Origin: Caldisericota bacterium
GTDB lineage: Bacteria > CG03 > B21-G15
Assembly: GCA_003650255.1 (NCBI GenBank)
Contig: QMOP01000001.1
Span: forward strand, 1-33,051
Direction of reading: 5' to 3'
DNA length: 33,051 nucleotides
This document shows, piece after piece, positions 39-28,837 of this stretch (the first letter of the stretch is position 1; each line of letters opens with the position of its first letter). Below the pieces are notes generated by a model. It searched no databases and was not told the origin of the DNA. It saw only the letters and a program-made list of their open reading frames with translations. Both the position numbers and the translations under genes were made by a program.

Positions 39-2489
39 ATGAAACTAAAGAAGTTTGGATATTTCAGTAAAGATGGGACAGAATTTATTATTACAACCCC
101 GCTACCTCCAAAGCCATGGATTAATTATTTAACAAATGAAATTTATTGTGCGATAATTTCTCAGACAGCAGGAGGATATTCGTTTTACAAAGATTGTAGA
201 AGTGATAGAATCTTAAGATGGGCACCCGAGAATAAAAATTTTGACCGTCCAGGAAGATATATTTTTGTTCATGATACAGATACAAAAGAGATATGGTCGT
301 TAAGTTATATTCCTCTAAGACAGAAATATAAAAGGTATCTCTGTAGACATGGGCTTGGATATACAGAAATTGAACAAGAGAGAGGAAGTATTTTAAGCAA
401 AATAGAGTTTTTTGTGCCAGTGAATGAGCCTTGCGAAGTGTGGATAGTAAGTTTAAAAAATAAAGGAAAAAAGACAAAAAGGCTGAAATTATTTCCGTAT
501 GTTGAGTTTTTAATTGGCGATTATCATATGGAGTTAAGATACAGAAATATAATGGTACTCTATAACAGATCTTGGTTTGACAGAGAAAAAGGGGCTATTT
601 TTGCTAAGAAAACTGCTTACTGGGGAGATATGAACATTCAGCCGTTTCCATATGTTGTGTTTTTTTCAAGCAGTTTAAAGGTTAAAAAAGCCTGTACAAG
701 AAAGGAAGCATTTCTTGGCCCTTACAATACAGAGGAGATGCCCGAGTCTGTATTTAAAGGAGAATTGAGAGAGTTTAATTTTTGTTCTGGTGAGGATGCA
801 GTTGGAGCATTTCAGCATGATGTCAAAATTGATCCGGGAAAAGTAGTAAAATTTGCTATTGTTCTTGGAGAAGCAAAGTCAGATACTGCCAGGAGGTTGA
901 TAAAAAAATATAGAAACATTTCAAAAGCGATGGAGGAGCTAGAAAGGACAAAAAAGTGGTGGAGAAAATTAATACTTGATAACATAGAAATTGAGACGCC
1001 AGATAAAGATATAAATATTTTCTTTAATATATGGTGTAAATATCAGTTATACATTTGTAATTACTGGTCAAGATCTCCTTCTTACTACCACGAAGGTTCT
1101 GGTGGAAGGGGATATAGGGATTCATGTCAGGATGCAGAGTCAATAGTTTCACTCAATCCAGAACTTACCAGAAAGAGAATTTTCTCTCTTGCAAAACTTA
1201 TAAGAGAAGATGGTTCTACTGCACCTGGCTGGTCTGAGACCAGAGGACCAGCAACATATAGGCCTAATAAGGATCATCCTGTTTGGCTTGTTTACACAGT
1301 TAGCTCTTACATAAAAGAGACAGGAGATGTTGGGATATTGAATAAGAAACTTCCGTACCTTAAAGATAAATGGAAAGATGGTTGGGAGATAGATCCTTTG
1401 TGGAGTAAAGGTTCAATATTTCTGGGAAAGGGGACATTATACGAGCATCTGTGGAAAAACCTCGAATACACTTATAATGATTTTGGCGAGTATAAACTTC
1501 CAAGAATTGGACATGCTGACTGGAATGATGGAATTGATGCTGCAGGAATAAAACACAGAGGTGGTTCTGTAATGCTTGCTTTCCAGCTCATAAGGTCAAT
1601 GAAGATTCTTGCTGAACTTGCAAATTTAATAGGCAGGAAAAAAGATGCAGAGGAGCTGATGCGTAGAGTTGAGATGGTGAAGAATATCCTGGAGAATAAA
1701 TACTGGGATGGAGTGTGGTATGTAAGAGGTGTAACAGATGATGGTTATGTTTATGGAAGTAAAAGGAATAGGGAAGGTAAGATATTTTTGAACTCCCAGT
1801 CATGGGCTATTCTTTCAGGAGTTGCTCAAGGCGAAAGATTAAAAAAACTTCTTTTTTCTGTTGATAAATATCTTGAAACAAAACATGGTTATGCATTGTT
1901 TTATCCTGCTTACAGCAAATGGGATAAAAGACTTGGAAGAATGAGCATGTTTTCAGAAGGAACAAAGGAGAATGCTGCTATTTTCTGTCATGCAGCAATG
2001 TTTATGATTGCTGCAAACTGTATTGCTGGAAGGGGAGAGAAAGCATATATAAATTTAAGAAAAATTATGCCGAATACACAGGAGGATTACAATCTTTATA
2101 AAGCAGAGCCGTATGTTTTTGCTGAATATCTTGTGGGTAGAGAACATCCATATCTTTTTGGAGAGGGAGAATTTACATGGATTACAGGAACCGCAGGCTG
2201 GGGATTTATGGTTTTAAATCAGTATATCCTTGGAATTAAGCCAGAGATTAATGGATTAAGAGTTTCTCCCTGTATTCCATCTCACTGGAAAAAGGTTTAT
2301 ATCAAAAGGCCATTTCGTGCTGACATTTATGAAATAATAATATATAATGAACATGGAGTAGAAACAGGAGTGGAGAAAATCATAGTTGATGGCAAAGAAA
2401 TAAGAGGGAATTTAATTCCTTATTTTGGCGATAAAAAGAGGCATACTGTTGAAGTAATAATGGGAAAAAGAAAGGGAGGACAGAGATGA
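39..2489 (+). CDS. GH94 disaccharide phosphorylase (cellobiose/chitobiose/laminaribiose phosphorylase family)
   Basis: 816-aa ORF with an AAGGAGG RBS at 27-33. The N-terminus FGYFSKDGTEFIITTPLPPKPWINYL resembles the characteristic GH94 start. It has the catalytic-Asp motif HADWNDG, and its length is typical of cellobiose/chitobiose phosphorylases. Substrate is not assignable by eye. Confidence 0.85.
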   Translation: MKLKKFGYFSKDGTEFIITTPLPPKPWINYLTNEIYCAIISQTAGGYSFYKDCRSDRILRWAPENKNFDRPGRYIFVHDTDTKEIWSLSYIPLRQKYKRYLCRHGLGYTEIEQERGSILSKIEFFVPVNEPCEVWIVSLKNKGKKTKRLKLFPYVEFLIGDYHMELRYRNIMVLYNRSWFDREKGAIFAKKTAYWGDMNIQPFPYVVFFSSSLKVKKACTRKEAFLGPYNTEEMPESVFKGELREFNFCSGEDAVGAFQHDVKIDPGKVVKFAIVLGEAKSDTARRLIKKYRNISKAMEELERTKKWWRKLILDNIEIETPDKDINIFFNIWCKYQLYICNYWSRSPSYYHEGSGGRGYRDSCQDAESIVSLNPELTRKRIFSLAKLIREDGSTAPGWSETRGPATYRPNKDHPVWLVYTVSSYIKETGDVGILNKKLPYLKDKWKDGWEIDPLWSKGSIFLGKGTLYEHLWKNLEYTYNDFGEYKLPRIGHADWNDGIDAAGIKHRGGSVMLAFQLIRSMKILAELANLIGRKKDAEELMRRVEMVKNILENKYWDGVWYVRGVTDDGYVYGSKRNREGKIFLNSQSWAILSGVAQGERLKKLLFSVDKYLETKHGYALFYPAYSKWDKRLGRMSMFSEGTKENAAIFCHAAMFMIAANCIAGRGEKAYINLRKIMPNTQEDYNLYKAEPYVFAEYLVGREHPYLFGEGEFTWITGTAGWGFMVLNQYILGIKPEINGLRVSPCIPSHWKKVYIKRPFRADIYEIIIYNEHGVETGVEKIIVDGKEIRGNLIPYFGDKKRHTVEVIMGKRKGGQR

Positions 2490-3748
2490 TTTATATTTTT
2501 TTAATTTCCTTGTTTTTTATTACTTCTTGCGCGAAAAAAACCGAAGAAAGGGAGATTGTAATTTGGCACTGGATGACAGATAGAGAGGATGCATTTTCAA
2601 GACTTGCTCAGGAGTTTATGGTGGAGAGGGGTATAAAGGTTAAGTTTGAATTATATGCTCCATCTGAGGTTTATTCTCAGAAGGTTAGAGCAGCTGCACA
2701 GACAAATACACTTCCTGACATATTTGGAATACTTGGTTCTCCGAGAGATTTTGCAAGTTTTATAAAAGCAGGGTTTGTTGAGGATCTGACTATGTATATG
2801 GAAGAGAACAATGGTAAGTGGAAAAACTCGTTTTATCCTCAAGCAATAGAGACTGTAAGCTTTAAAGATGGAAATATGTATGGAGTAAAGCCTGGTATAT
2901 ATGGAATTCCGATAGATATGATGAATATTCAAATGATATGTAATACCGAGATTCTGAAAAAGGCAGGAATAGAAAAAATTCCTGAGACATGGGAAGAATA
3001 TGTAGATGCTGGAAGGAAATTAAAAAAGAAGGGAATAAATGTTTTTGTAAGTGGTTGGGGAGAAGTCTGGCTTCTTGAGGCAATGGCAACAAGTTTTGCA
3101 TTCAATATCATGGGTCCTGAAAAAGTTTTTAATACATTTAAAGGTGAAGTTCCATATACTGACCCTGACTGGATAAAAGTTTTTTCACTGTTTGACACAA
3201 TGAGGAAGGAGGGGTTGTTTATAAAAGACAGTATAACAATGGTAAATAAAACAGCAGAACAGATGTTTGCGAATGGGAGATCTGCATTTACTTTTAATGG
3301 TTCATGGTGTATAAATGTTTATAAAGGAATGAATCCAAATCTTAAATATTCTCCCTGTCTTTTGCCCAAGGTAAATAGAGGAAATCCTGTTTATATCTGG
3401 GGTGGTTCTGGTTCTTGGTTTGTTGTGAATTCAAAGTCAAAATATAAAAAAGAGGCAATAGAATTTCTTAAGTGGTTGACCTCCTCACAGCAGCAAAAAT
3501 TCTTAACAGAAGAGACGATGAATTTACCTTCAAATAAAGATGCTGCTGAAAAGTTAAAAGGACTACTTAAGGAGTTTGCTCTTGGAATGAAATATGTAAC
3601 ACATCCAAATTTTTGGCCGGTTCATGAAACACCTGAAGTTATTGAAAAATTTGATAAAGGGATTCAACTTATTCTTATAGGTAAAAAAACTCCTTTTCAG
3701 GTAGCAAAGGAACTGGATAAATATAAAAAGGAACAACTGAAAGAATGA
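2486..3748 (+). CDS. ABC sugar transporter substrate-binding lipoprotein (family 1 SBP, CUT1 type)
   Basis: ATGA overlap with the upstream stop. Signal peptide with lipobox FFITSC. Length of 420 aa and W/F-rich SBP pattern (IVIWHW, GSWFVVN). Sits directly upstream of two permease genes. Confidence 0.85.
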   Translation: MIYIFLISLFFITSCAKKTEEREIVIWHWMTDREDAFSRLAQEFMVERGIKVKFELYAPSEVYSQKVRAAAQTNTLPDIFGILGSPRDFASFIKAGFVEDLTMYMEENNGKWKNSFYPQAIETVSFKDGNMYGVKPGIYGIPIDMMNIQMICNTEILKKAGIEKIPETWEEYVDAGRKLKKKGINVFVSGWGEVWLLEAMATSFAFNIMGPEKVFNTFKGEVPYTDPDWIKVFSLFDTMRKEGLFIKDSITMVNKTAEQMFANGRSAFTFNGSWCINVYKGMNPNLKYSPCLLPKVNRGNPVYIWGGSGSWFVVNSKSKYKKEAIEFLKWLTSSQQQKFLTEETMNLPSNKDAAEKLKGLLKEFALGMKYVTHPNFWPVHETPEVIEKFDKGIQLILIGKKTPFQVAKELDKYKKEQLKE

Positions 3749-4638
3749 GCGAGGAAAAGGTTTCAAAGTTAAAGGATTACCTTACCTCTTATCTCTTCAT
3801 TATTCCTGCAGTTCTTCTTTTTTCTGTTTTTAGTATCTACCCTATTTTTAAAATTCTCCAACTGAGTTTACTCAAATGGGATGGAATATCTCTTTATCCT
3901 AAGTTTGTTGGTTTAAAAAACTTTATTGAGGTTATAAAGGATAAAATATGGTGGAAGTCATTTTTGAATGCTGGAATAATCACTCTTCTTGCTCTTACTG
4001 TCCAGAATGCTCTTGCTCTTGTTCTTGCTATAATTGTTGATAAAGATATAAGAGCAGGTGAGATTTACAGAGTTATTTTTTATATTCCTCCAGTTCTTTC
4101 TGGAATAGTTGTTGGATTGATTTGGAACTGGATATACAATTATGATTATGGTTTTTTGAATCACTTTCTTGAAGTTATAGGTTTGGGAGGGTTAAAGAGA
4201 GCCTGGTTGAGCGATCCAAAGCTTGCTTTGTTTTCTGTTGCTGTTGTTCATATGTGGAAAGGGTTTGGTTGGGGTTTTATTATATTCCTTGCAGGACTTC
4301 AAACAATACCAAGGAATCTTTACGAGGCTGCTCAGATTGATGGTGCAACTCCCTGGAAGACATTTTTACATGTTGTTGTTCCTATGATGAGACCTGTTTT
4401 TTTTCTCGTCTCAATTTTGACAATTTTAGGAACAATGCAGATATACGATATAATAGTTGCAACAACAGGGGGTGGTCCAGGGTATGCAACAGAAGTGCCG
4501 ATAACCAGAATTCTTTCATCAATGTTAGGTTCTTCAAGATTTGGCTATGCGTGTGCTGAGGGTTTAATTTTTGGAGTTGTTCTTCTTGCTGTTTCCCTGA
4601 TACAGTTAAGGATATCGGCTATGATGAGAAATGAGTAA
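3745..4638 (+). CDS. ABC sugar transporter permease (MalF/UgpA-like)
   Basis: Multi-TM 297-aa protein with the EAA loop LYEAAQIDGATPWKTFLHVVVPMMRP. ATGA overlap with the SBP gene. Confidence 0.9.
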   Translation: MSEEKVSKLKDYLTSYLFIIPAVLLFSVFSIYPIFKILQLSLLKWDGISLYPKFVGLKNFIEVIKDKIWWKSFLNAGIITLLALTVQNALALVLAIIVDKDIRAGEIYRVIFYIPPVLSGIVVGLIWNWIYNYDYGFLNHFLEVIGLGGLKRAWLSDPKLALFSVAVVHMWKGFGWGFIIFLAGLQTIPRNLYEAAQIDGATPWKTFLHVVVPMMRPVFFLVSILTILGTMQIYDIIVATTGGGPGYATEVPITRILSSMLGSSRFGYACAEGLIFGVVLLAVSLIQLRISAMMRNE

Positions 4639-5482
4639 GATTTTACTAAAGGCAAGATTTGAAAAGGTTAAAGTTATTCTTGTATCACATTTAATATGTA
4701 TTCTTGTTACCATTGCTTGCATTTTTCCACTTGTATGGATGGTTTCATCGAGTTTAAAAACTCAGGAGACAGTTTTTAAGGATTTCTCTTTAATACCCAA
4801 ATCTCCTCACTTTAAAAATTATCTTATTGCAATAAAAGAAGCAAATTTCGGTATTTATTTTTTAAACAGTGTTTTTTATACTGCAACAGTTGTTCTTGCT
4901 ATAATTTTTCTTTCTTCCATGGCAGCGTATGCATTTTCCAGATTAAGGTTTCCACTGAGAAGTGTATTTTATATTATGCTTATATCAACAATGATGATCC
5001 CTATTCCAGGAATATTTATTGCTCTTTATGTTCTTTTAAATAAGCTCCACCTTATAAATACGAGAATTGGATATATACTCTGCCAGATTAATGCTGGACT
5101 GCCTTTGAGTATATTTCTTTTTAAAACATTTATGGACAAAATTCCGAAAGAGCTTGAGGAGGCAGCAAAAGTTGATGGATGTAATAAATTTCAGATTTAC
5201 TGGAAGATTGTTTTTCCCCTCAGCAGACCCACTCTTGGAGTAATTGCCATTTTTAATACCCTAGCTGTATGGAATGAGTATCTTTTGGCTATGCTTGTAT
5301 TCTCAGATAAGTCATTGATGCCATTACAGAGGGGTCTTATGGTTTTTTATGGTTCACATCTTACTCAATATCCACTTCTTATGGCAGGCCTTACAATTAC
5401 AACAATTCCTGTTCTTATTGTTTACTTCTTTATGCACAGATACATTGTTTCTGGAATAATTGCAGGAGCATTAAAAGGTTAA
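4631..5482 (+). CDS. ABC sugar transporter permease (MalG/UgpE-like)
   Basis: Multi-TM 283-aa protein with the EAA loop LEEAAKVDGCNKFQIYWKIVFPLSRP. 8-nt overlap with the upstream permease. Confidence 0.9.
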   Translation: MSKILLKARFEKVKVILVSHLICILVTIACIFPLVWMVSSSLKTQETVFKDFSLIPKSPHFKNYLIAIKEANFGIYFLNSVFYTATVVLAIIFLSSMAAYAFSRLRFPLRSVFYIMLISTMMIPIPGIFIALYVLLNKLHLINTRIGYILCQINAGLPLSIFLFKTFMDKIPKELEEAAKVDGCNKFQIYWKIVFPLSRPTLGVIAIFNTLAVWNEYLLAMLVFSDKSLMPLQRGLMVFYGSHLTQYPLLMAGLTITTIPVLIVYFFMHRYIVSGIIAGALKG

Positions 5483-14291: not shown

Positions 14292-15617
14292 GTGTTTGCA
14301 ATTTTGTTTTTATTACTTCTCTCCTCTGAAAGTTTCTTAGTAAAAAATAGAGGAGTGTATCTTGGTGGAAAAACTTTTATTGTAAGAGGGATATGTTATT
14401 CACCAACTCCTGTTGGTGAGGATGTTTCTCTGGGTTATGAATGGTGGAATGACGATTATTATCTTGATGATTTACCCCTTTTAAAATCTCTTGGTTGTAA
14501 TGTGATAAGAACATACGACATGAAGGCAACCTCTTCAGATGAAGAGGTGCGGTTGGAGAAGGTTCTTGATGATTTTTATAACTATGGAATATATATAATT
14601 ATGGGATATTGGGTAAATCCGGGACAGGATTTTTCCTCTCCAACTATAAGGGATAGTTTGAAAAATGATTTCATAAATATGGTAGAAAAATGGAAAAATC
14701 ATCCAGCAGTTTTTGGATGGTGTTTTGGAAATGAAGTCTGGCCTGGCGGAAGTGGAACGGATGAGGAGAAATGGAAAAGTTGGTATTCACTTGTTGAAGA
14801 GGTTTCATCTTTAACTAAATCCATTGACCCTGACCATCCGGTGATGACAGTAAACAGTGATATATGGACGATTGGAAGAACAGAGTTGGGTTCTGATGAT
14901 TCATCCCTTCCTTCACTTGATATATGGGGAGTTAATCTATATCTTGGAGATTCATTCCAGAGTAGATTTTCGTCGTTTACTGTTCTTTCTTCAAAGCCAT
15001 TTTTAATAACTGAGTTTGGCTGTGATGCTTGGAATGGGAAAGTTGGTTCTGAAGATGAGGATTTGCAGGCCAATTATATTCAAGCACAGTGGAAGGAAAT
15101 AGAGGAGAATCTTTTTACAGAGTCTGGAGCAGTTATAGGAGGCTGTCTGTTTGAGTGGGTGGATGAGTGGTGGAAAAGTAATTCAGGAAGCCCGTCATCT
15201 CATGATACATCTAGCGATTGGACTAATGTTTATTATTCTGATCCAAGCATGAATGAGGAGTGGTGGGGAATAAGGAAGATACTCTTACCTCCATACAATT
15301 GTAGTTCTAGAGAAGCATATTTTACTCTTCAAAATTTATGGAGTAAATATGTGTTAAGTTCTGAAAAAGTTTATGTTTTTCCCAACCCTTTTTACCCGGG
15401 AAGAGGACAGAAGTTGAGTTTTGGAAATCTACCAGTTAATTCCGAAAAGATAAGAATCTTTGCTATCAGTGGAGAGTTCATTGATGAGATTTCGGTTATT
15501 AACCAGCAGGCAAACTGGTATGGAGAAAATTATTATGGAAAGCCTGCCGCATCAGGAGTTTACTTTTTTGTTGTTTATCCAGCTGGACAGAAAGGTAAAT
15601 TCGTTCTTATAAAATAA
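14292..15617 (+). CDS. Secreted clan GH-A glycoside hydrolase/transglycosylase with GH72-like motifs and a T9SS-type C-terminal sorting (FlgD-Ig-like) domain
   Basis: GTG start with a signal peptide. Motifs GKTFIVRGICYSPTPVG, LKSLGCNVIRTYD, GIYIIMGY, WCFGNEVW, LITEFGCDAW and FEWVDEWWK. The C-terminal ~80 aa (VYVFPNPFYPG...IRIFAISGEFI...ASGVYFFVV...GKFVLIK) look like TIGR04183-type CTDs. Confidence 0.6.
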   Translation: MFAILFLLLLSSESFLVKNRGVYLGGKTFIVRGICYSPTPVGEDVSLGYEWWNDDYYLDDLPLLKSLGCNVIRTYDMKATSSDEEVRLEKVLDDFYNYGIYIIMGYWVNPGQDFSSPTIRDSLKNDFINMVEKWKNHPAVFGWCFGNEVWPGGSGTDEEKWKSWYSLVEEVSSLTKSIDPDHPVMTVNSDIWTIGRTELGSDDSSLPSLDIWGVNLYLGDSFQSRFSSFTVLSSKPFLITEFGCDAWNGKVGSEDEDLQANYIQAQWKEIEENLFTESGAVIGGCLFEWVDEWWKSNSGSPSSHDTSSDWTNVYYSDPSMNEEWWGIRKILLPPYNCSSREAYFTLQNLWSKYVLSSEKVYVFPNPFYPGRGQKLSFGNLPVNSEKIRIFAISGEFIDEISVINQQANWYGENYYGKPAASGVYFFVVYPAGQKGKFVLIK

Positions 15618-15650: not shown

Positions 15651-15679
15651 TTGACTTTACAGATTTTGAAAATTAATAT
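15651..15679 (+). promoter_or_regulatory. Candidate sigma70-type promoter (TTGACT - 17 nt - TAATAT)
   Basis: Located in the only sizeable gap of the 5' half (15618-15704). TTGACT at 15651-15656 and TAATAT at 15674-15679. An AGGGAG RBS at 15691-15696 precedes the TTG start at 15705. Confidence 0.45.
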
Positions 15680-15704: not shown

Positions 15705-16925
15705 TTGAAAAGGCGAAAAATAACTTTCCTTCTTCCTTCAATTGCCGGCTTTTATACAAAGGATGTAATAGAAGAAGAAATAAAGATTTTTAGAAGAAAA
15801 AAGCCTGATATAAGTGTAGAGGTTCACATACTTTCTTGGACCAAACTGTGGAGTATGTTGGTTGATATAATGAAAAGAAGAAAAACAATCCCCTCTCCAG
15901 ATATAATTGCTATAGGAAATACATGGCTTGGAACAGCTTTGTATTTTGAATTACTTATTGATATTTCCAAATTTACCTCGTTTTTTTCTGAGAAGGTTTT
16001 TTTGCCAAAGCTTGTTAAGAATAAAATAGTGCTTAAATATTCGGTCCCATGGATTTCAGACATAAGGGTTTTATATTATAGAAAAGATATTCTTCAAAAG
16101 ATTAATGTTGATGAGTCTGAAATTAAAACAATAGATGGGTTTGTCAAATCCTGTGAGAAGATAAAAAAAGAGATTAAGGATATTTATCCATTTGCTATTT
16201 CTGGACAGAAAGAGGAGATTTTAATCCACGATTTATTTCCCTGGCTTTATATAGCAGGTAATTTTTATAGAAGGGTGGGGAACAAAATAAGATTTTTCTC
16301 AGAAAAGGTGTATGAGGGAATGAGGTTTTATTTTGCCCTTGTCAGAGACTATTATATTCCCTATCGTTTGAAGCTGAAAGTGGCGCCTCCAGGAAATTTT
16401 TTTACAGGAGATTATGCATTTCAAGTTTCTGGTACCTATCCTAAAAAGAGTATATTCAATAAAAAACACTCTGAATACAGAGAGAATGTTGCTAAAAATT
16501 TTGGAGTTTCTTTTCTCCCTTCAACTAATGGAAAAACACCAGTTACATATATAGGAGGAATAAATCTTGTAGTTCCATATACTGCAAAAGATGTTTCCTC
16601 ATCTCTTGAATTTATAAAATTCCTTATCTCTCCAGAGTCTCAGCTTAGATGTGTTTCTTCTCTTAGCATGCTACCTGCCAGAGTTGATTGTTTTGAGAAG
16701 TTCTTTACTGAAAATGAAGGAGAGATAAAGAAGGTATTTTTGGAATCTTCAAAAAAGGGAAAGACCTTAAGTTGCGTCCCGCTTCTTGGGACAATTGAAA
16801 AGATGGTTTCATATTTTACCACTTCTATTTTTAGGTTAATGCTTGAAAGAAAATATAATGAGGAAATACTCAGAAAGAAGGTAATTCAGCTTATAGAGGA
16901 GATAGATTTTATAGAAAGATGGTAG
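15705..16925 (+). CDS. Family-1 solute-binding-protein-like protein without a recognisable signal peptide or lipobox (candidate cytoplasmic ligand sensor)
   Basis: TTG start. 406 aa with SBP-like layout (KITFLLP as first strand, GNTWLG, ISDIRVLYYRKD, GGINLVVP). By eye it aligns from residue ~6 onto the mature part of the 2486 SBP. 7-nt overlap with the GGDEF gene. Confidence 0.55.
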   Translation: MKRRKITFLLPSIAGFYTKDVIEEEIKIFRRKKPDISVEVHILSWTKLWSMLVDIMKRRKTIPSPDIIAIGNTWLGTALYFELLIDISKFTSFFSEKVFLPKLVKNKIVLKYSVPWISDIRVLYYRKDILQKINVDESEIKTIDGFVKSCEKIKKEIKDIYPFAISGQKEEILIHDLFPWLYIAGNFYRRVGNKIRFFSEKVYEGMRFYFALVRDYYIPYRLKLKVAPPGNFFTGDYAFQVSGTYPKKSIFNKKHSEYRENVAKNFGVSFLPSTNGKTPVTYIGGINLVVPYTAKDVSSSLEFIKFLISPESQLRCVSSLSMLPARVDCFEKFFTENEGEIKKVFLESSKKGKTLSCVPLLGTIEKMVSYFTTSIFRLMLERKYNEEILRKKVIQLIEEIDFIERW

Positions 16926-18358
16926 AAGAAGTAATTTCTAAATTTTTGAAAGAACTTGAGAGAAATTTTTATTCTCTTGAGAGACTTACAGAAGTATCTC
17001 TTGAATTTCTACAGAGAGTATCTGGAAGTAGGACTGTTGGAATTTTTCTTTCATCCCCTGAAGAAAGGAATGTCTGGAGGATGAAGAAAATAATTCATTT
17101 AGGGAAATTTGTCGAAGGAGAAGAGGAGATAGATTTGAGAGAAGGAGTTAACAGGCAGTTATTAAAACTGAAAAGGAGAGAAAAAAAGTATTTTATCAAG
17201 AGTTATAAAGATAGCTTTTATCTTTACTTTCCTCTTGGTGATGGGGAAGTTATAGGCTGTTTAAGATTTGTAGATGACAGGAAGAGGAGGAAGGGTATCT
17301 TTTCAAAATTATCAGAGATAGAAGTGCTTGCATATATTATAGCGAGTTATATGAATAAGCTATTTTTGTGGGAAGAAGCACAGGTAAGAAGTAGAATGCT
17401 TGGTAGTTTTATGAAGCTTTCAACAATTCTTACTAAGGAAAAGTATTTAAGAGGAATTTTAAGAGAGATAATATATGAACTTGAAGAAAGTTTCAGATTT
17501 GATTTCATAAGAGCATATTTCATAGATAAGGAGGAAAGGAGTATTTTCGGTTTTATAGGTATTAACTGGAAGAGGGAGATTCAGGATATTTCCCATTTAA
17601 AAATTTTTCTTGATGAAGAGGAGAACAGGCTTTCAGAGTATGTTAAGTCGGGAAGTGAATTTAAGATTTATGATGAAGGATGTTCATTATACTTATCACT
17701 TAAGAGTAAAGGTGAAATTTTTGGCATATTAGAAGTGAGTAATATATACTCTCAGGAGAGAATAGATGAAGGAACTATTAATTTCCTGAAGTCATTTTTG
17801 AATCACATTAATTTTGCCATTGAAAAAGCCACTCTTTTCGAAGAGATAGAGAGATTATCCTTAAAGGATGGATTAACAGGGCTTTATAACATAAGGTATT
17901 TTAAAGAGAGAGTTAAAGAGGAAATAGAAAGGTCAAGAAGAAACAATCTCTGTTTCAGTATGGTTATGATTGATCTGGATAATTTTAAGAAGATAAATGA
18001 CAGTTTTGGACACAGTACAGGGGATAAAGTTTTAAAGTTTTTTTCAGAAGAGTTGCAGAAAAATATGAGAAAAAGTGATGTCATTTGTAGATATGGCGGA
18101 GATGAGTTTTTAGTGCTTTTACCGAGAGTGAATATTGGAAAAAGCAATTTCATGAAAGAAAGGATAAGAAAGGTTTTATGTAAAGAGATAAGGATAGGTA
18201 ATTTGAAAGTAAGTATTTCAGCCAGTATAGGAGGAGTGGTTTTTCCATTTGATGGGGATACAGTTGAGAAGCTTTTTGAGAGAGCAGACCATGTTTTATA
18301 TAAAGTTAAGAGGAAAGGGAAAATGGATTTTAGGTTATTTAGTGAAGATGCAAGATAA
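16919..18358 (+). CDS. Soluble GAF-domain diguanylate cyclase (GGDEF) with intact I-site
   Basis: The C-terminal GGDEF domain has DGLTGLYNIRYF and IDLDNFKKINDSFGH, with an active site RYGGDEF (GGDEF codons at 18095-18109). RKSD (18068-18079) lies 5 residues upstream, matching the RxxD inhibitory site. The N-terminal ~300 aa are GAF-like, and there is no TM segment. Confidence 0.9.
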   Translation: MVEEVISKFLKELERNFYSLERLTEVSLEFLQRVSGSRTVGIFLSSPEERNVWRMKKIIHLGKFVEGEEEIDLREGVNRQLLKLKRREKKYFIKSYKDSFYLYFPLGDGEVIGCLRFVDDRKRRKGIFSKLSEIEVLAYIIASYMNKLFLWEEAQVRSRMLGSFMKLSTILTKEKYLRGILREIIYELEESFRFDFIRAYFIDKEERSIFGFIGINWKREIQDISHLKIFLDEEENRLSEYVKSGSEFKIYDEGCSLYLSLKSKGEIFGILEVSNIYSQERIDEGTINFLKSFLNHINFAIEKATLFEEIERLSLKDGLTGLYNIRYFKERVKEEIERSRRNNLCFSMVMIDLDNFKKINDSFGHSTGDKVLKFFSEELQKNMRKSDVICRYGGDEFLVLLPRVNIGKSNFMKERIRKVLCKEIRIGNLKVSISASIGGVVFPFDGDTVEKLFERADHVLYKVKRKGKMDFRLFSEDAR

Positions 18359-18413: not shown

Positions 18414-18448
18414 TTTACTGATAGGAATTTAACGAGGAGGTGATGAAG

Positions 18449-20397: not shown

Positions 20398-20398
20398 T

Positions 20399-20480
20399 GG
20401 GAAAAAGGCAAACTCCGGGTGACCGGAGGACGCAAAGCCACGGATCCTGATATTCTGTCAGGATAGCCGGGCTGCCCCGA
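20399..20480 (+). promoter_or_regulatory. c-di-GMP-I (GEMM-I) riboswitch aptamer
   Basis: GC-rich island in an AT-rich gap. It has GGCAAAC; a hairpin CUCCGG(20413-18)-GUGA-CCGGAG(20423-28) with a GNRA loop; GACGCAAAGCC (20429-39); a second hairpin AUCCUGA(20444-50)/UCAGGAU(20458-64) flanked by CGG/CCG with a bulged AG; and GCCGGGCUGCC. The order and core strings match the Vc2-type consensus. The SD AAGGAGG lies at 20485-91 and the ATG at 20497. Confidence 0.85.
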
Positions 20481-20496
20481 GGAAAAGGAGGTGTTT

Positions 20497-21165
20497 ATGA
20501 AGAGGATTCTTCTCGGAGCAATTGTCTGCTTTGCTTCCTTCGGGGTTCTTTTTTCTTTCACATCTCAGGGAATTTCAACAGTTACAGCTACTGCCGAGCT
20601 TACAGGGGAAGGTATTGTTCAGATGAGTATTGAGATTAAGAATGTTTTGACACATTCAACTACAACTCAAATTTACTGGTCAGGAATTACACTTCCAACT
20701 GGATGGGAAGTGGCAGATAGTTACATCCTTCTTCATTCAACAATTACAGCTGCATCAGGTGGAATAAGGATTTACACTGACAACAAGTCAGCAGATGCAA
20801 ATCCGCAGTATACAGGGTCAGATAGTGGAGGAGGACTTGTTGATACCTCGGATACAACAAAAAAATTGCCTATAGGATGGAAAATTACAGAGGATACAAC
20901 AACAGTTAGTGCTGCTGATCCGGATAGTGATAGTAGCTGGTTTTATTTTAAAGACAAAAGTGATTCTGATTTCTGGATCAATGCTGATACTCAAGATTAC
21001 TCTACAGTGAAGAAAGCAGATGGGATTCATTATAATCAGGGTTCTTCAAATTATGGAGGAGGAACCTCTCCAGATGCAATATACATGGAATGTAATTTCA
21101 CGAATGCTGTAACTCCGAGGACATACAAAACTTCCACAATTCGAATAGAGGCATTTATACAGTAA
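20497..21165 (+). CDS. Secreted protein of unknown family (candidate surface fibre/adhesin subunit), first gene downstream of the c-di-GMP riboswitch
   Basis: I prefer the ATG at 20497, 5 nt after GGAGG, over the GTG at 20491. Signal peptide MKRILLGAIVCFASFGVLFSF. T/S/D-rich mature protein. It shares a ~190-aa domain with the 21921 protein (LPTGWxVAD, IYTDNxS, GLVDTSxTTKxL, YFKDKxxSDF, NAVTPRTYKT). Confidence 0.5.
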   Translation: MKRILLGAIVCFASFGVLFSFTSQGISTVTATAELTGEGIVQMSIEIKNVLTHSTTTQIYWSGITLPTGWEVADSYILLHSTITAASGGIRIYTDNKSADANPQYTGSDSGGGLVDTSDTTKKLPIGWKITEDTTTVSAADPDSDSSWFYFKDKSDSDFWINADTQDYSTVKKADGIHYNQGSSNYGGGTSPDAIYMECNFTNAVTPRTYKTSTIRIEAFIQ

Positions 21166-21213
21166 GAAGTTAGTTTATATAAGAAAGAGTTTTAAAAAGG
21201 AAAGGTAGATAAA

Positions 21214-21924
21214 ATGTGGATATTTTCTAGTTTATTCTTATATTCACTTCTTGCAATGTCTGTTACTCCAGCAAAGTATGAGTTACTTCTTTCCACAGGA
21301 GAAAGAAACACCATTTATTTCACCGTCAAAAATGATAAATTAGAAATGATGAAAGTAAGGGTTAATTCTAAATACTGGTTTGTTTTACCGGAGAATAAAG
21401 GAATAGAGATTGATTCATGGTTGAGTTTTAGTCCAAAAGAGTTTTATTTAAAGAAAGGAGAGGGAAAAAGGGTTATATGTGAGGTTATTGTTCCTAAGAA
21501 TGCTAGTGGGTTCTTAAATGGAATGCTTTCATTCAATCAAATTGATTCTCCAACTTCCGTTAATATCACCATAAGTGTTCCTGTTTATATTATAATAAAG
21601 GATAACTATTCCTTTGATTTTGAGGTTAGGGGACTTAAGAGGGAAAATGAATATCTTCTTGTTGAGATTTTTAATAAAGGAAATGTTTATTTTAGACCAA
21701 GAGGAAGGATAAAAATGAATAGAGAGAGAAATTTTTTAATTTTTAAGAAAAAAAGTTTTCTATTTGAAAAAAGATTTAAAGAAGAAAGACATATTTTTCC
21801 TGGTAGTAGCGGATATGTTAAACTGGGAAATTTGGGTTTAAAAGATGGAAAATATGAGGTTATATTGGAACTTGAGTTTTGGGGAGATAAAAAAATAAGG
21901 AAGAAAATAGTGGTTTTGAAATGA
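21214..21924 (+). CDS. Secreted two-domain Ig-fold-like protein (possible PapD-like periplasmic chaperone); function unknown
   Basis: Signal peptide. The mature start VTPAKYELLLSTGERNTIYFTVKNDKLEMMKVRVN has the strand pattern typical of pilus-chaperone or DUF916-type Ig domains. A second beta-rich half follows. This is a weak pattern-based call. Confidence 0.3.
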   Translation: MWIFSSLFLYSLLAMSVTPAKYELLLSTGERNTIYFTVKNDKLEMMKVRVNSKYWFVLPENKGIEIDSWLSFSPKEFYLKKGEGKRVICEVIVPKNASGFLNGMLSFNQIDSPTSVNITISVPVYIIIKDNYSFDFEVRGLKRENEYLLVEIFNKGNVYFRPRGRIKMNRERNFLIFKKKSFLFEKRFKEERHIFPGSSGYVKLGNLGLKDGKYEVILELEFWGDKKIRKKIVVLK

Positions 21925-22997
21925 TTATTCTTTTTCTTTTTTTGTTTTTTCTTTATCCAGAGATTTTAACAATCTACAATGATGAGGGGATATCAGGGGA
22001 TAATATCTACACATGGAATGATGGGGGTGCGGATTATGATGGAAGTTCGCAGGATCTGGAATCTGTTCCAGAAGGGTTTAAATGTTTTAAGACCACAGCG
22101 ACCTCTGGAAGTTATGCTGGATGGGGAGTTTTTTACAATACAGAGCAGGACTTTTCAGAATATCAAAATGGAGATTTGAGATTCTGGATTTACTCTTCAA
22201 CAGGGAATATAAAGGTTGAGATAGAAAGATGGAATGGTGAAACAGTGACAAAATATTTGAGTGATTATGGCTGGAATGATTCTTATGTTAATACTTGGAG
22301 ACTTTTTTCCATTCCATTAGATGATTTTGCAGTAGATATTACAACATCAGTGAAATCTCCATTTAAAATTACAGTCCTTACAACACCAGCAACATTTTAT
22401 ATTGATATGGTGAGATGGGCGGTTAATATTGATACCGGAAGTTTTAATTTAAAAATAAAAAGGATTTCAGATGATGTTGAAGTTTCATCGTTCACTTTTA
22501 CCAGGGTAAATTTAATAGGGCTTCCAACAGGATGGGTTGTTGCTGATCAGTATATAGAAATTGAAGTAGAACCTTCGGATATTTCCTGGGGAATACAGAT
22601 TTACACAGACAATGAGAGTCCCTCAGCAGACCCAAGATATACAGGAACAGAGGATCCAGCAGGTCTTGTTGATACATCGACTACAACAAAGAGATTACAA
22701 ATGGGCTGGACAATAGAATATTTAACCCATTCACTTTCAGAACTTGGAACAGGAGAGCCAGGAACTTGGGTAAATGGGGGCTATCAGTGGAAGTATTTTA
22801 AAGATAAAGCAAGTTCAGATTTTACAAATGGAGGAAGTTATGTAACTCCTTGGAATAATGAGGGTTTATTATGGAATACATGGCAGAGAGATTCAAAAAG
22901 TCCTCCAAATTATATTTATATAAGTGCGGATTTTTCAAATGCAGTTACACCAAGAACATATAAAACTAAAATTTTTGTAGAGTTTTATTATCAATGA
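21921..22997 (+). CDS. Secreted protein: CBM-like beta-sandwich fused to the same unknown domain as the 20497 protein (candidate tip or adhesin subunit)
   Basis: ATGA overlap with the upstream gene and an N-terminal signal. The CBM-like part has YAGWGVFY, DLRFWIYSSTGNIKVEI, WRLFSIPLDDF and FYIDMVRWA. The C-terminal half is paralogous to the 20497 protein, ending NAVTPRTYKTKIFVEFYYQ. Confidence 0.5.
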   Translation: MIILFLFLFFLYPEILTIYNDEGISGDNIYTWNDGGADYDGSSQDLESVPEGFKCFKTTATSGSYAGWGVFYNTEQDFSEYQNGDLRFWIYSSTGNIKVEIERWNGETVTKYLSDYGWNDSYVNTWRLFSIPLDDFAVDITTSVKSPFKITVLTTPATFYIDMVRWAVNIDTGSFNLKIKRISDDVEVSSFTFTRVNLIGLPTGWVVADQYIEIEVEPSDISWGIQIYTDNESPSADPRYTGTEDPAGLVDTSTTTKRLQMGWTIEYLTHSLSELGTGEPGTWVNGGYQWKYFKDKASSDFTNGGSYVTPWNNEGLLWNTWQRDSKSPPNYIYISADFSNAVTPRTYKTKIFVEFYYQ

Positions 22998-24127
22998 GAA
23001 GATTATGTTTTTTATTATTATTTTTTGAGTTGCCTCTACTTTCTTTTCAAACAATATCTTCTTATACAATTACAGCTTTTGTTCAATTTACTGTTGAGGA
23101 TTCAACTCCACCTGTAATAGATCATGAAGAAATAAAAAGGATTTCAGAGATAACGAGAATAGCAAGAGTTATAGCAACTTTTAGAGATGAAATTCAACTT
23201 TCAAAGGTGGGAATTTACTATTCATCATCTCCTTCAGCAGGTTTTTTGAAAAAGGAGTTTTCTCCTCAGACGACTTTTTATAGTATGAATGTATTAATAG
23301 AAAAGGAGATAATAAATCCTCCAACATTTTATTACAGGTTAATGGCTTTCGATGGAATAAACTATTCATATCTTCCCTCTTCCAGTTCCTGGTTTGAGGT
23401 TAAAGTAAATAGGATTGAATATTTCGATATTTCTTCATCTGGAGGAGAGATAATCCTTTATGATGGAAATTCAGAAGATGGAGAGTTAAGGTTGATTTAT
23501 CCTAAGAATGTAGTAGATGAGGATGTAAGATTAAAAATTGAGGAAACATCTCCTTTTGAGTTTAATGTGGAAAATGATGAGTTCCTCTGGAGAAATCCAG
23601 TATCAGTTTATTCTTTTCAACCAGATATTGATTTTAAAAGAGAGATAATATTAGAAGTTCCATATCAAGATGTGAATGATGACGGAAGGGTTGATGATGT
23701 GAATATTGAAGAGAGGAACTGTCAACTTTTCTTTTTTGATGGTTTTGAATGGAGATTTTGTGGTGGAGATTTGGATAGTAAGAAGAATATTATAAGAGTG
23801 AGGACAGACCATCTTTCAATTTATGGAGTTTTTCTTTTGAAAAAAATTTCAAAAAATCTTCTTAAACCAAAACAGAAATTTATTTCTCCTGGAGTAAAAG
23901 ACGGAGTAAATGATGAGATTGTCTTTGATGGACTTGATGATTCTAATACAGAAGTAAAAATCTTTGATTTGAGGGGAAGAATGGTAAAAAGGATAAAGGG
24001 GTATCCATATAAGTGGGATGGAAGGGATAAAAGGGGAAGATTGGTAGAACCAGGAGCATACATATATCAATATTTTCATCCTCTTTTAGATAAGAGAATA
24101 ACAGGTGTTGTAATTGTTGTAAGATGA
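22994..24127 (+). CDS. Secreted protein of unknown function with C-terminal FlgD-Ig/T9SS-CTD-like domain
   Basis: ATGA overlap with the upstream gene. Signal peptide MRRLCFLLLFFELPLLSF. The C-terminus reads EVKIFDLRGRMVKRIKGYPYKWDGRDKRGRLVEPGAYIYQY...GVVIVVR. Confidence 0.5.
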   Translation: MRRLCFLLLFFELPLLSFQTISSYTITAFVQFTVEDSTPPVIDHEEIKRISEITRIARVIATFRDEIQLSKVGIYYSSSPSAGFLKKEFSPQTTFYSMNVLIEKEIINPPTFYYRLMAFDGINYSYLPSSSSWFEVKVNRIEYFDISSSGGEIILYDGNSEDGELRLIYPKNVVDEDVRLKIEETSPFEFNVENDEFLWRNPVSVYSFQPDIDFKREIILEVPYQDVNDDGRVDDVNIEERNCQLFFFDGFEWRFCGGDLDSKKNIIRVRTDHLSIYGVFLLKKISKNLLKPKQKFISPGVKDGVNDEIVFDGLDDSNTEVKIFDLRGRMVKRIKGYPYKWDGRDKRGRLVEPGAYIYQYFHPLLDKRITGVVIVVR

Positions 24128-25005
24128 GATATTTAAAGAAGTTAATGGTTATATTGCTTTTCTCCAAACTTTATTCAGCATTTAATTATTTTCCAATTCC
24201 GTCAAGATTTCTATTTGCTGGAATTCCTGTTGATCTCAGAAATGATGCTGGAAGTATTTTCTCCAATCCAGCTGGACTTGATTCTCTTGTAACAAAACAG
24301 ATTGAAACTACATATTCATTGGCTTATCCAGAGATGGATGAAGATATATCAGGTTATACAGTTTTATCAGGTATGAGTTTAAAATTAGGTTTAGGAGTTG
24401 GAGTAGGTTTTTCCTATCTTGATGTTGATAGAATTTACAAAGAAAGTGAAATACTTATTGGAGCAGGCATAAAGGGGGATAGGATTCATTTACCGGTTTC
24501 AGTAGGTTTTAATTTGAAATTTCTAAAAAATAAATATATAATTGGTAAAAGGGAAGAGGGTGATATTGTGTTTTCAAAAGGAAAATTAATGAAAACGGTT
24601 TCAATAGATTTAGGATTTATTTTCAGAAAAGAAAAATTTTTAGTTTCCCTTTCTTTGAAAGATATAAATAGGCCAGATGTTGGAATTTATGAAAGTGTGA
24701 GGAAGAATTGTTCTATAGATTTTGATATCTCCTACAGAGTTTTTCCAGTGTATGAAGGAGACATTTCTTTTGGTTATCTGTATGAAGAAGGAAATAGTAG
24801 ATTCAGCGGAGGATATTCTCAGTATTTGTATTCAAATCTGGTAAGGGGGTATATCGGAACAAATCTGGATGCTGTTGGTCTGGCGATTTCAGTTGTTTTA
24901 CCATATCCTAAATTCAGTTTCACCTTTGAATATGGTTATTATTTTCCAATTTATTTAAAGGAGACATTAGGTGCCCATTCTATTAGTTTAAAGTGTGAAT
25001 TTTAA
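24124..25005 (+). CDS. Small outer-membrane beta-barrel protein (PorV/PorQ/FadL-like N-terminal NPAGL motif)
   Basis: ATGA overlap with the upstream gene and a signal peptide. Motif DAGSIFSNPAGL near the N-terminus. Alternating-hydrophobic strands throughout, ending SISLKCEF with a terminal aromatic residue. Confidence 0.5.
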   Translation: MRYLKKLMVILLFSKLYSAFNYFPIPSRFLFAGIPVDLRNDAGSIFSNPAGLDSLVTKQIETTYSLAYPEMDEDISGYTVLSGMSLKLGLGVGVGFSYLDVDRIYKESEILIGAGIKGDRIHLPVSVGFNLKFLKNKYIIGKREEGDIVFSKGKLMKTVSIDLGFIFRKEKFLVSLSLKDINRPDVGIYESVRKNCSIDFDISYRVFPVYEGDISFGYLYEEGNSRFSGGYSQYLYSNLVRGYIGTNLDAVGLAISVVLPYPKFSFTFEYGYYFPIYLKETLGAHSISLKCEF

Positions 25006-26101
25006 AGTGGGAAGGGATATAGTTGTAGAAGGATTGACAAAGTCCTTTTCTAAAGGTGTATATGGAGTTAAAAACTTAAATTTTAAAATAAAAGAAGGTG
25101 AGTTTTTTGTCGTTGTTGGACCAAGTGGTTCTGGAAAAACCACTTTTTTAAGATTGATAGCAGGACTTGAAAGACCTACTTCTGGAAAAATTTTGTTTGG
25201 AGATGAGGATATAACTCATAAAAATCCAAGAGAGAGAAAAGTTGCTATTGTTTTTCAGGAGTATGCAATTTATCCTCATCTTTCAGTATATGAAAATATA
25301 GCATTTCCATTAAGGATAAGAAAATATTCAAAGGATTATATTGATAGAAAAGTTAGAGAAGTAGCAAAGATTCTTGAAATAGAGAATCTTCTTTTCCGGA
25401 AACCAGATACACTTTCAGGAGGACAGAGGCAGAGGGTTGCACTTGGAAGAGCAATTGTGAAGGATGCTGAAATATTTTTATTTGATGAACCATTATCAAA
25501 TTTGGATGCAAAATTAAGGATTAGTATGAGGATAGAATTAAAAGAACTTCATAAAAGGATTAAGAAGACATTTATATATGTAACACATGACCAGAGTGAA
25601 GCAATGAGTATGGCTGATACAATATGTGTTTTAAAGGATGGTGAAGTTGTTCAATTTGGAAGACCTGACGAAATTTATAATAGACCAAAAAATCTATTCA
25701 CAGCAAAATTTTTTGGTGTTCCGCAGATGAATATTTTAAAAGGGAAGGTTAAAAATAGAGATGGAGAGATTTATTTTGATGAGGGAAGTGGATCCCTTTT
25801 AATTGATGGAAAGTTCAAGAAATATGAGAATGAGGAGATTTTACTGGGTATAAGGCCAGAGCATATATATGACAGATTGTATACCTCAAGACCTGAAAAA
25901 GGAACAACACTCATTGCCACATTTGAAATGATGGAAATTCTTGGGAAGGATTTTTATCTCTATCTTAACACAGGGTATCATAATATTGTTGTTAGAACAA
26001 CATATAAATCTGAAATTAAACCAGGGCAGGATATTATGATTGTATTTGATATGAAGAAGGCACATTTTTTTAATATTAAAACAGGAGAGAGAATTGATTA
26101 A
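24995..26101 (+). CDS. Sugar ABC transporter ATP-binding protein (MalK/MsmK/UgpC type)
   Basis: GTG start at 24995, with an alternative GTG at 25007. Walker A GPSGSGKTT, signature LSGGQRQRV, Walker B IFLFDEPLSNLD, H-loop YVTHDQ, and a C-terminal MalK-like regulatory/TOBE region. Confidence 0.9.
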   Translation: MNFKVGRDIVVEGLTKSFSKGVYGVKNLNFKIKEGEFFVVVGPSGSGKTTFLRLIAGLERPTSGKILFGDEDITHKNPRERKVAIVFQEYAIYPHLSVYENIAFPLRIRKYSKDYIDRKVREVAKILEIENLLFRKPDTLSGGQRQRVALGRAIVKDAEIFLFDEPLSNLDAKLRISMRIELKELHKRIKKTFIYVTHDQSEAMSMADTICVLKDGEVVQFGRPDEIYNRPKNLFTAKFFGVPQMNILKGKVKNRDGEIYFDEGSGSLLIDGKFKKYENEEILLGIRPEHIYDRLYTSRPEKGTTLIATFEMMEILGKDFYLYLNTGYHNIVVRTTYKSEIKPGQDIMIVFDMKKAHFFNIKTGERID

Positions 26102-28763: not shown

Positions 28764-28837
28764 GGGCGGGTAGCCCAGTTGGTGAGAGCGCTGCCCTTAC
28801 AAGGCAGAGGTCGGGAGTTCGAGTCTCCCCCCGCCCA
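28764..28837 (+). tRNA. tRNA-Val (anticodon UAC)
   Basis: 74-nt cloverleaf. Acceptor stem GGGCGGG/CCCGCCC with discriminator A. Anticodon stem CUGCC/GGCAG with loop CUUACAA. T-arm GGGAG-UUCGAGU-CUCCC. 5-nt variable loop. The D-stem GCCC/GAGC has one C-A mismatch. CCA is not encoded. Confidence 0.9.

Follow-up and report, generated by a model that had tools for sequence, protein, structure and literature searches.

Can a solute-binding protein (SBP) that has lost its export signal serve inside the cell as the partner of a diguanylate cyclase? This question is raised by two adjacent genes of a Caldisericota bacterium (assembly GCA_003650255.1, contig QMOP01000001.1, positions 1 to 33,051 of the forward strand; this whole stretch of 33,051 nucleotides is referred to as the window). 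The first gene encodes a leaderless SBP-like protein (SBPL) and the second a diguanylate cyclase.

15705..16925, plus strand: SBPL, TTG start, 406 aa; assigned from Pfam SBP_bac_1/8, an AlphaFold2 (AF2) model and Foldseek
16919..18358, plus strand: tandem-GAF/GGDEF diguanylate cyclase, ATG start, 479 aa; assigned from Pfam and NCBIfam GGDEF and an AF2 model with a predicted local distance difference test (pLDDT) of 87

The whole is best explained by a cytoplasmic sensor made up of the two gene products, which would feed a nearby cyclic di-GMP (c-di-GMP) riboswitch, an explanation that we believe and doubt in about equal measure. A sensor of this kind had been put forward in an earlier reading of the DNA made without database searches (the sequence-only reading), and its claims are taken up below together with the results that bear on them.

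Absence of a leader from SBPL

SBPL matched Pfam SBP_bac_1 with 72.7 bits (cut-off 26, E 7e-20) and SBP_bac_8 with 66.9 bits (cut-off 27). NCBIfam contained no model for it, the best match being 17.8 bits against a cut-off of 700. Its AF2 model (pLDDT 84.5, predicted template modelling score 0.86) has a two-lobed alpha/beta Venus-flytrap fold. The reading frame cannot be extended in the 5' direction, because an in-frame stop precedes 15705, which is the first start available to it; a longer open reading frame (ORF) or an alternative start was ruled out by the same stop. A GGGAG/GGAG Shine-Dalgarno sequence is situated immediately 5' of the TTG codon.

The only hydrophobic stretch of SBPL is found at its N-terminus (ITFLLPSIAGF). 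Its best hydropathy over 10 residues is 1.77, compared with 2.8-3.25 for genuine leaders in the window, namely those of three further secreted proteins and of the SBP encoded at 2486. A 19-residue segment with a hydropathy above 1.5 was present neither in SBPL nor in the cyclase. In the AF2 model residues 4-11 (KITFLLPS) form beta-strand 1 of the N-lobe core sheet with a pLDDT of about 89, and in a MAFFT alignment the same residues coincide with EIVIWHW of the mature lipoprotein SBP at 2486, in which this strand is preceded by the protein's own leader MIYIFLISLFFITSC with a lipobox. Alignment and model therefore agree with the sequence-only reading, which had matched the hydrophobic stretch to the first strand of that SBP.

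At 45 cyclase-paired homologue loci strand 1 is preceded by 3-12 residues (consensus LNLWVMPNAGF), and at most of them an in-frame stop no more than 17 codons upstream leaves a leader impossible. Six more distant relatives that have no cyclase neighbour carry classical leaders or lipoboxes, e.g. MRRYWVLALACLLLASTGC. The hallmarks of an SBP of ATP-binding cassette (ABC) transporters are absent from SBPL: it has no Sec or Tat signal, lipobox or membrane anchor, and it is not linked to cognate permease genes, the next gene being the cyclase. The upstream stop, the hydropathy, the position of strand 1 and the relatives all agree with the TTG start and with the lack of a signal peptide or lipobox that had been proposed. 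By computation SBPL is thus shown to be a predicted cytoplasmic protein that has lost its export signal, as had also been supposed, and the leader is missing throughout the clade.

The SBPL gene had further been credited with a promoter-like element of its own, for which the following is a candidate.

15651..15679, plus strand: promoter-like element TTGACT-17-TAATAT with 9/12 consensus matches, within the 87-nt AT-rich gap that precedes the pair

The element exists, but such matches are no commoner in the window than in shuffled sequence (25 versus 20.9 +/- 5), and it is only suggestive. A terminator scan of the window likewise gave counts that were not above those in shuffled sequence. As neither count exceeds that background, operon boundaries remain inferred.

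The cyclase encoded by the second gene

The two genes overlap by 7 nt in the junction ATGGTAG. The product of the second is 100% identical to the NCBI entry 'MAG: hypothetical protein DRI36_00075 [Caldiserica bacterium]' (MAG, metagenome-assembled genome) and matched Pfam GGDEF with 155 bits (E 1.8e-45). The overlap and the lack of any segment with the hydropathy of a transmembrane helix were both seen correctly in the sequence-only reading. The domains are as follows.

16919..17302, plus strand: GAF-like domain A, residues 1-128, with a G-E-E-E-I loop; from AF2 secondary structure
17447..17740, plus strand: GAF domain B, residues 177-274, after a long helix (131-173); AF2
17864..18325, plus strand: GGDEF catalytic domain, residues 316-469, with RKSD at 18068-18079 and GGDEF at 18095-18109

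In the layout of the AF2 model the GAF-like domain (1-128) is followed by a 43-residue helix, the GAF domain (177-274), a 32-residue helix and the GGDEF domain (316-473). The assignment of GAF domains, also made earlier, is probable, with a restriction: the window protein itself scores below the Pfam cut-off (21.7 versus 28.6 bits, with a weak GAF_2 match at 242-302), but 12/14 full-length cyclase homologues match GAF and two GAF-like domains are visible in the model.

The active-site GGDEF occupies residues 393-397 within the motif RKSD-VICRY-GGDEF, in which RxxD stands exactly 5 residues before it, just as had been read from the letters. RxxD together with GG(D/E)E(F/L/V/I) or AGDEF is kept in 36/36 complete partner cyclases. 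With this GGDEF site and RxxD I-site the cyclase is predicted to be catalytically intact and product-inhibitable. The G-E-E-E-I loop (region of residues 60-75) is a signature of the SBPL-paired cyclases, G67 being present in 36/36 and E68 in 32/36 of them; one may speculate that it is a docking or ligand site.

Conservation of the gene pair

Related loci were scanned with one genome per GTDB species; 43 loci were returned, 4 of which ended too near the gene to be assessed. At the leaderless loci with readable downstream DNA, a full-length cyclase homologue was the next gene on the same strand in 33/33 species. These homologues gave BLASTP E values of 1e-45 to 1e-71, with the N-terminal sensory region as well as the GGDEF domain covered. 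Among the leader-bearing relatives a cyclase was next door in 0/6, and ABC permease genes follow in at least 4/6. The association between the lack of a leader and the cyclase is perfect (Fisher p ~3e-7). The distance between the two genes ranges from -8 to +179 nt, and many loci have overlaps of 1-8 nt, such as are typical of translational coupling. Functional coupling of an SBP-like protein to the cyclase, for which co-occurrence in related genomes had been named as a check, is supported by this strict adjacency and the frequent overlaps.

The same arrangement was found on metagenome contigs. The hosts are mostly Elusimicrobiota, and also include Auribacterota, Omnitrophota, Planctomycetia, Spirochaetota, a MAG of the Planctomycetota-Verrucomicrobiota-Chlamydiota (PVC) group and the Caldiserica MAG studied here. 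In loci L020, L026, L041, L043 and L044 the pair is kept without any other shared neighbour. Since these loci have nothing else in common with the window, SBPL and the cyclase constitute the minimal conserved unit.

A word-indexed search of 5.8 billion clustered proteins returned only 16 close relatives of SBPL, and an exhaustive profile search brought up leaderless relatives of ~400-430 aa in a few dozen clusters of 50% identity. The SBPL gene was found identical on an independent JGI contig, and an orthologue with 65% identity agrees with it in both the N-terminus and the 7-nt overlap. Among 13 family members that are 28-65% identical, 39 residues are invariant. A second, more divergent leaderless subgroup (group B, e.g. 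P0161, with N-termini of the type MKTLxFWVLPN...) also has a GAF-GGDEF gene next to it, and every SBPL seen in groups A and B was accompanied by a cyclase.

A third leaderless clade (group C) is represented by P0249 (locus L056, 1050-2243) and about 25 related representative clusters (P0211, P0214, P0227, P0231 and others). Its members have N-termini like MxELELSIM..., are ~396-400 aa long and keep the Trp at position 361. In the one locus examined the gene is flanked by a GH1 gene and a rhamnosidase-like gene, with no cyclase, and group C may be a separate cytoplasmic SBP-like family. Other relatives of the SBP clade (P0142, P0217, P0274 and P0261) occur as tandem SBPs or as kinase or permease fusions. 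In one sub-lineage of the Elusimicrobiota (L001, L002, L009, L013, L016, L022 and the P0004 contig) no glycan genes stand before the pair; 1-4 HisKA_7TM histidine kinases and a receiver-HisKA-HATPase hybrid kinase precede it, which suggests integration with a phosphorelay.

The ligand pocket of SBPL

The closest relatives of SBPL in the PDB, as found with the family profile, are CbpB of C. thermocellum (E 2e-80), the beta-glycosides-binding protein of Thermus thermophilus (E 1e-77) and, third, the sophoro-oligosaccharide binder Lin1841. Foldseek aligned the SBPL model to the Thermus protein and to CbpB with TM-scores of 0.81-0.84 (0.84 for 7C68/7C69). Judged by these comparisons, SBPL is a descendant of the ABC solute-binding proteins of the beta-glucoside/cellodextrin type.

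The contact residues of the Thermus protein were taken from the depositors' point mutants. The counterparts of W41, W67 and E117 in SBPL are W45, W74 and D119, all three of which are invariant in the SBPL family; W177 (SBPL position 171) has no Trp counterpart. CbpB has two stacking Trp residues, W90 and W296 (PMC9601137). The former is equivalent to W45 and the latter to Y245, which is a Trp in most aligned members of the family.

The pocket was then compared over 23 relatives of group A, 14 of group B and 26 with a leader. The measure was the set of 69 columns whose conservation among the exported proteins reaches 80% or more; of these, 57/69 are kept in group A and 38/69 in group B. Group A retains W45, W74, W116, D119, R121, H175 and W180, and its cleft appears to be still under selection, which makes a ligand likely. 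The Tyr at 355 was lost from both paired groups. Both have gained T18, K57, C150, Y384 and L389, which were not seen in the exported relatives. By this comparison the predicted pocket of SBPL is a remodelled one.

Our best guess for the ligand, as far as sequence comparison can indicate it, is an oligosaccharide of the beta-glucan type. It is favoured because of the ancestry of SBPL and because of the locus, which contains GH94, GH5 and GH2-like genes as well as a sugar ABC importer.

39..2489, plus strand: GH94 phosphorylase, of a family of cytoplasmic cellobiose/cellodextrin/laminaribiose phosphorylases
2486..5482, plus strand: sugar ABC importer, comprising the lipoprotein SBP (2486-3748, with lipobox) and two permeases (3745-5482)

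The GH94 enzyme is consistent with the presence of beta-glucan oligosaccharides in the cytoplasm. The best PDB relatives of the lipoprotein SBP bind chitin- and sophoro-oligosaccharides, and homologues of the importer are found upstream of the pair in L010, L034, L036 and L040.

The riboswitch and its output genes

Downstream of the cyclase a predicted RNA receptor precedes five genes.

20398..20480, plus strand: c-di-GMP-I-type riboswitch aptamer; RF03167, 72.7 bits versus a gathering threshold of 59, E 1.4e-15
20474..20499, plus strand: candidate expression platform, in which GCCCC (20474-20478) can pair with the Shine-Dalgarno sequence AAGGAGG (20485-20491)
20497..25005, plus strand: riboswitch-controlled genes R1-R5
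20497-21165, plus strand: R1, secreted protein of unknown function
21214-21924, plus strand: R2, secreted protein of unknown function
21921-22997, plus strand: R3, secreted protein of unknown function
22994-24127, plus strand: R4, protein with a CHU_C sorting domain of type B (type IX secretion system, T9SS)
24124-25005, plus strand: R5, PorP/SprF/PorV-like barrel

The riboswitch had been placed at 20399-20480, and what was found there is a significant Rfam match that starts at 20398 and spans model positions 1-80 of 80 (clan CL00126, P1/P2/P3). The top-scoring Rfam model is the 'c-di-GMP-I-GGC' variant. At the one visible mismatch to its consensus ACGCGAAG the window has ACGCAAAG, which we take to be the canonical c-di-GMP-I sequence. 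The aptamer is predicted to be a receptor of the c-di-GMP class. No EAL, HD-GYP or PilZ domain was present in the window ORFs of at least 120 aa, as the sequence-only reading had remarked.

The end of the aptamer is separated from AAGGAGG by 4 nt, which suggests translational control. GCCCC overlaps the 3' strand of P1, and in the ligand-free minimum free energy fold it pairs with the Shine-Dalgarno sequence in a short helix. Tentatively, the riboswitch would be a translational ON switch, in which a ligand-stabilized P1 could free the Shine-Dalgarno sequence. ATG at 20497 is a likelier start for R1 than the listed GTG at 20491, because the latter lies in the Shine-Dalgarno sequence.

Homologues of R1-R5 directly follow the cyclase in L004, L013, L016, L022, L028, L030, L036, L037, L038 and L039, in other phyla and notably in many Elusimicrobiota, and in the window a lipoprotein gene and an OmpA gene stand between the cyclase and R1-R5. 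Two independent lines, the gene order conserved elsewhere and the c-di-GMP-class aptamer of the window, thus connect the output genes with the cyclase. Nothing else supports the local circuit as strongly, and the link between riboswitch genes and cyclase that had been suspected from this window alone gains from both.

The intervening 223-aa lipoprotein (18440-19111) and the N-terminal half of the OmpA-domain protein (19108-20397) are paralogues, and both are matched by the same ORFs in other loci with 42-57% identity. In the related loci this lipoprotein/OmpA pair stands upstream of SBPL; in the window it stands downstream of the cyclase.

Proposed mechanism and alternative explanations

In the mechanism that we propose, SBPL would close around a small molecule, most likely an oligosaccharide delivered by the neighbouring ABC importer, and would bind, in one of its two conformations, to the tandem-GAF part of the cyclase translated together with it. 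Through this docking the helical linkers would be displaced and the activity of the GGDEF dimer altered. The c-di-GMP produced would act on the riboswitch at 20398-20480, where a ligand-stabilized P1 would free the Shine-Dalgarno sequence and turn on the secreted and outer-membrane proteins R1-R5. Uptake of a substrate would in this manner be coupled to remodelling of the cell surface. We infer the ligand, the contact between SBPL and cyclase, its activation or inhibition by SBPL and the ON logic of the riboswitch. More doubtful than the circuit in this window, though still well within reach, is the generalization that the pairs belong to a widespread and unrecognized class. In such a class former ABC-transporter SBPs would act as cytoplasmic allosteric subunits of tandem-GAF cyclases and convert an imported oligosaccharide via c-di-GMP into the production of a PorP/SprF-like barrel and CHU_C cargo, with the riboswitch as the link in the Caldiserica lineage.

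Several observations weigh against the proposed sensor. A c-di-GMP riboswitch was not found in 29 related loci (~370 kb, Rfam gathering thresholds), which makes the RNA link lineage-specific, and the c-di-GMP for the riboswitch could come from other cyclases of the genome. The pairwise identities of SBPL and of the cyclase are correlated with r = 0.96 (mirror-tree), a value that carries little weight because simple co-inheritance predicts it too. A fusion of SBP, GAF and GGDEF was not found among the 10 over-long proteins in the best 150 representatives, which are tandem SBPs and SBP-dCache-histidine kinase, SBP-kinase and SBP-permease fusions. The window SBPL is divergent and has kept only 34/69 of the conserved columns; it has ITFLLPSI in place of the WVMPN loop, and GGINL in place of GGSNL. 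Trp 171 and Trp 361, which are 85-100% conserved in the secreted relatives, were lost clade-wide. Subgroup B has in addition lost W45, R121, H175, W180 and the GGS loop and still pairs with a GAF-GGDEF protein, which speaks for a partnership independent of the ancestral sugar pocket.

These changes in the pocket are what would be expected if SBPL were a partner of the cyclase with a non-sugar ligand (GTP, c-di-GMP or another metabolite), or a ligand-free regulatory or scaffold subunit. The clade-wide loss of the two Trp residues, the state of subgroup B and the divergence of the window protein all favour this possibility, and T18, K57, C150, Y384 and L389 of the paired clade point to a new function. 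The 57 columns retained by group A, including the seven cleft residues listed above, are however hard to explain without a selected cleft, and in many lineages the pair sits within a glycan-utilization cluster. A partner without a sugar ligand is regarded as rather unlikely.

It would be less probable again that the two proteins are co-transcribed without interacting. SBPL would then bind or buffer sugar for catabolism, for instance by handing it to the GH94 enzyme, and the GAF domains of the cyclase would sense something else. GAF domains often bind small ligands of their own, and the setting of P0249, beside a GH1 and a rhamnosidase-like gene without a cyclase, implies that cytoplasmic SBP-like proteins can occur in a purely catabolic context. 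The adjacency in 33/33 species of several phyla includes, however, loci without nearby glycan genes, the frequent overlaps of start and stop codons suggest a fixed stoichiometry, and groups A and B were never seen without the cyclase. This makes independent functions improbable.

Export of SBPL by a short or unconventional signal or by the Tat system (MKRRKI), followed by an NspS-like role in the periplasm via a membrane partner, is very improbable. An RR pair followed by an uncharged stretch of 11-13 residues and a possible S-I-A cleavage motif are visible. The hydrophobic stretch is, however, strand 1 and its cleavage would disrupt the domain; no membrane segment is present in the cyclase; and the exported relatives show obvious leaders or lipoboxes. 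Nor is the RR of MKRRKI a conserved Tat motif: KRRK is replaced by KKKE in the closest orthologue (65% identical), and other homologues start with MSEKIRLNLW or MANPIRLNLW without a hydrophobic region. A Tat or short Sec signal in MKRRKITFLLPSIAGF was rejected, as it is not kept in that orthologue and the segment is strand 1. That the missing leader is an artefact of annotation or assembly, or a sign of a decaying gene, as the TTG start and the metagenome-assembled contig might suggest, is effectively refuted by the upstream in-frame stop, the identical gene on the JGI contig, the N-terminus and 7-nt overlap shared with the 65% orthologue and the 39 residues invariant across 13 members.

Comparison with known systems

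The proposed cytoplasmic sensor was compared with systems in which an SBP or a separate protein controls a cyclase. A review of SBP signalling from 2021 states at its opening that SBPs are extracytoplasmic by definition, and the only SBP-to-c-di-GMP systems in it are NspS-MbaA and ScrB-ScrC, i.e. periplasmic SBPs that act on transmembrane GGDEF-EAL proteins (PMC8050422). In both NspS-MbaA of Vibrio cholerae and ScrB-ScrC of V. parahaemolyticus the gene of a transporter-derived SBP adjoins a GGDEF gene, as it does here, and NspS is an SBP_bac_8-type protein like SBPL. NspS and ScrB have become ligand receptors for c-di-GMP signalling and their transport role is gone (PMC8050422). They possess signal peptides, however, and act on a periplasmic dCache-like domain, whereas SBPL and its cyclase have neither export signal nor membrane segment. 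MbaA and ScrC are GGDEF-EAL proteins, whereas the partner of SBPL is a tandem-GAF protein with GGDEF only, and their contact would be cytoplasmic. As a periplasmic SBP and a transmembrane receptor are both missing, the pair falls outside this class; by analogy it may work similarly to NspS-MbaA on the opposite side of the membrane.

The closest relatives of SBPL in sequence and fold, the Thermus beta-glycosides-binding protein (7C63 series) and CbpB (7X0I-7X0N), share with the SBPL family the motifs PW..D.R.LYYRKD, H..(A)PW.WG.GG and GGSNL and a stacking Trp equivalent to W45. These proteins are exported and serve ABC permeases, whereas SBPL is leaderless, adjoins a cyclase and lacks Trp 361 and an equivalent of W177.

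In the effector domains of LacI/GalR and LysR regulators a Venus-flytrap fold senses metabolites, including sugars, in the cytoplasm. Those domains belong to other families of periplasmic binding proteins and are fused to DNA-binding domains, whereas SBPL is a stand-alone family-1 SBP that would have a second-messenger synthase as its output. SiaC controls the activity of SiaD and is a small phosphorylation-controlled partner-switch protein, not a ligand-binding Venus-flytrap; we know of no kinship to SBPL in sequence or fold. SiaC-SiaD of Pseudomonas aeruginosa (7E6G, by its entry title) is nevertheless an example of a separate soluble protein bound to a diguanylate cyclase.

The best full-length fold match of the cyclase is IsPadC (5LLW, 6ET7), which also has tandem GAF-type domains, long helices and a GGDEF domain; the TM-score is only ~0.34 because the arrangement of the domains differs. 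IsPadC is a phytochrome-activated cyclase of the PAS-GAF-PHY type, whereas the window cyclase has no PAS domain or bilin-binding site. Its input is light, and that of the window cyclase would be the partner protein. The likeness suggests, by analogy, that the cyclase signals through its helical linkers.

The c-di-GMP-I riboswitch Bc2 of Bacillus thuringiensis is located upstream of a collagen adhesion protein gene (PMC4933901). It resembles the window aptamer in being a c-di-GMP aptamer in the leader of cell-surface protein genes. The window aptamer differs by its 4-nt distance from the Shine-Dalgarno sequence, suggestive of translational control, and by a cyclase gene ~2 kb away; elsewhere, orthologues of that cyclase are found in synteny with the genes that follow the aptamer here.

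A full-text search of the literature, which included cytoplasmic SBPs and Elusimicrobia cyclases, did not turn up any account in which a family-1 SBP without a leader is paired with a cyclase. Together with the purely periplasmic cases of the 2021 review this agrees with the earlier judgement that the input module is an unusual one. As far as can be judged computationally from the genomes of uncultured organisms, the conserved pair of leaderless SBP and cyclase points to a hitherto undescribed mode of intracellular sensing. If this is true, SBP-mediated signalling extends into the cytoplasm, in contradiction to the usual extracytoplasmic definition of SBPs, and the pair would provide the first input signal for a c-di-GMP network in the uncultured phyla Elusimicrobiota, Omnitrophota, Caldisericota and Auribacterota. 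The chain of sensor, second messenger and riboswitch is compact and possibly engineerable, and its components are small and soluble (two proteins of ~45-55 kDa and an RNA of 83 nt). The synteny also ties uncharacterized envelope proteins to c-di-GMP control and glycan utilization, which is a testable hypothesis of their function.

The wider locus

BLAST of all window proteins revealed a long cluster (window 2486-25005) that is shared by many MAGs of the Elusimicrobiota and the present Caldiserica contig; the loci are L028, L036, L037, L039, L030, L013, L016, L022 and L004. Its order begins with the ABC SBP, two permeases, a GH2-like enzyme, a 627-aa protein, a lipoprotein and its OmpA-fused paralogue, and continues with a 211-aa protein, a DUF5683 protein, a lipoprotein resembling carbohydrate-binding modules, SBPL and the cyclase. 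In the Elusimicrobiota it ends with the PorP/SprF-like barrel (R5), R1, R2, the CHU_C protein (R4) and R3. Most members have no Pfam family, and the cluster looks like an uncharacterized apparatus for glycan capture or of the cell surface. In the window R5 is followed by an ATPase gene.

24995..26101, plus strand: MalK-type ABC ATPase; ABC_tran, OB_MalK, TOBE_2

The ORF at 11051-12379 encodes a response-regulator receiver at the N-terminus and a FlgD Ig-like domain at the C-terminus, a pairing that is odd for a cytoplasmic receiver; the FlgD domain is otherwise found at the C-terminus of the GH72-like glycosidase encoded at 14292-15617. After the MalK-type ATPase a histidine kinase and two receiver-domain proteins are encoded at 26094-28742, of which one receiver protein has two receiver matches and the other a GYF_2-like N-terminus. 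The listed start of the ORF at 27364 overlaps the kinase gene by 83 nt and the real start is probably further downstream. Between these regulator genes and a block encoding a methyltransferase and a beta-helix protein lies a tRNA gene (28764-28837, 70.6 bits).

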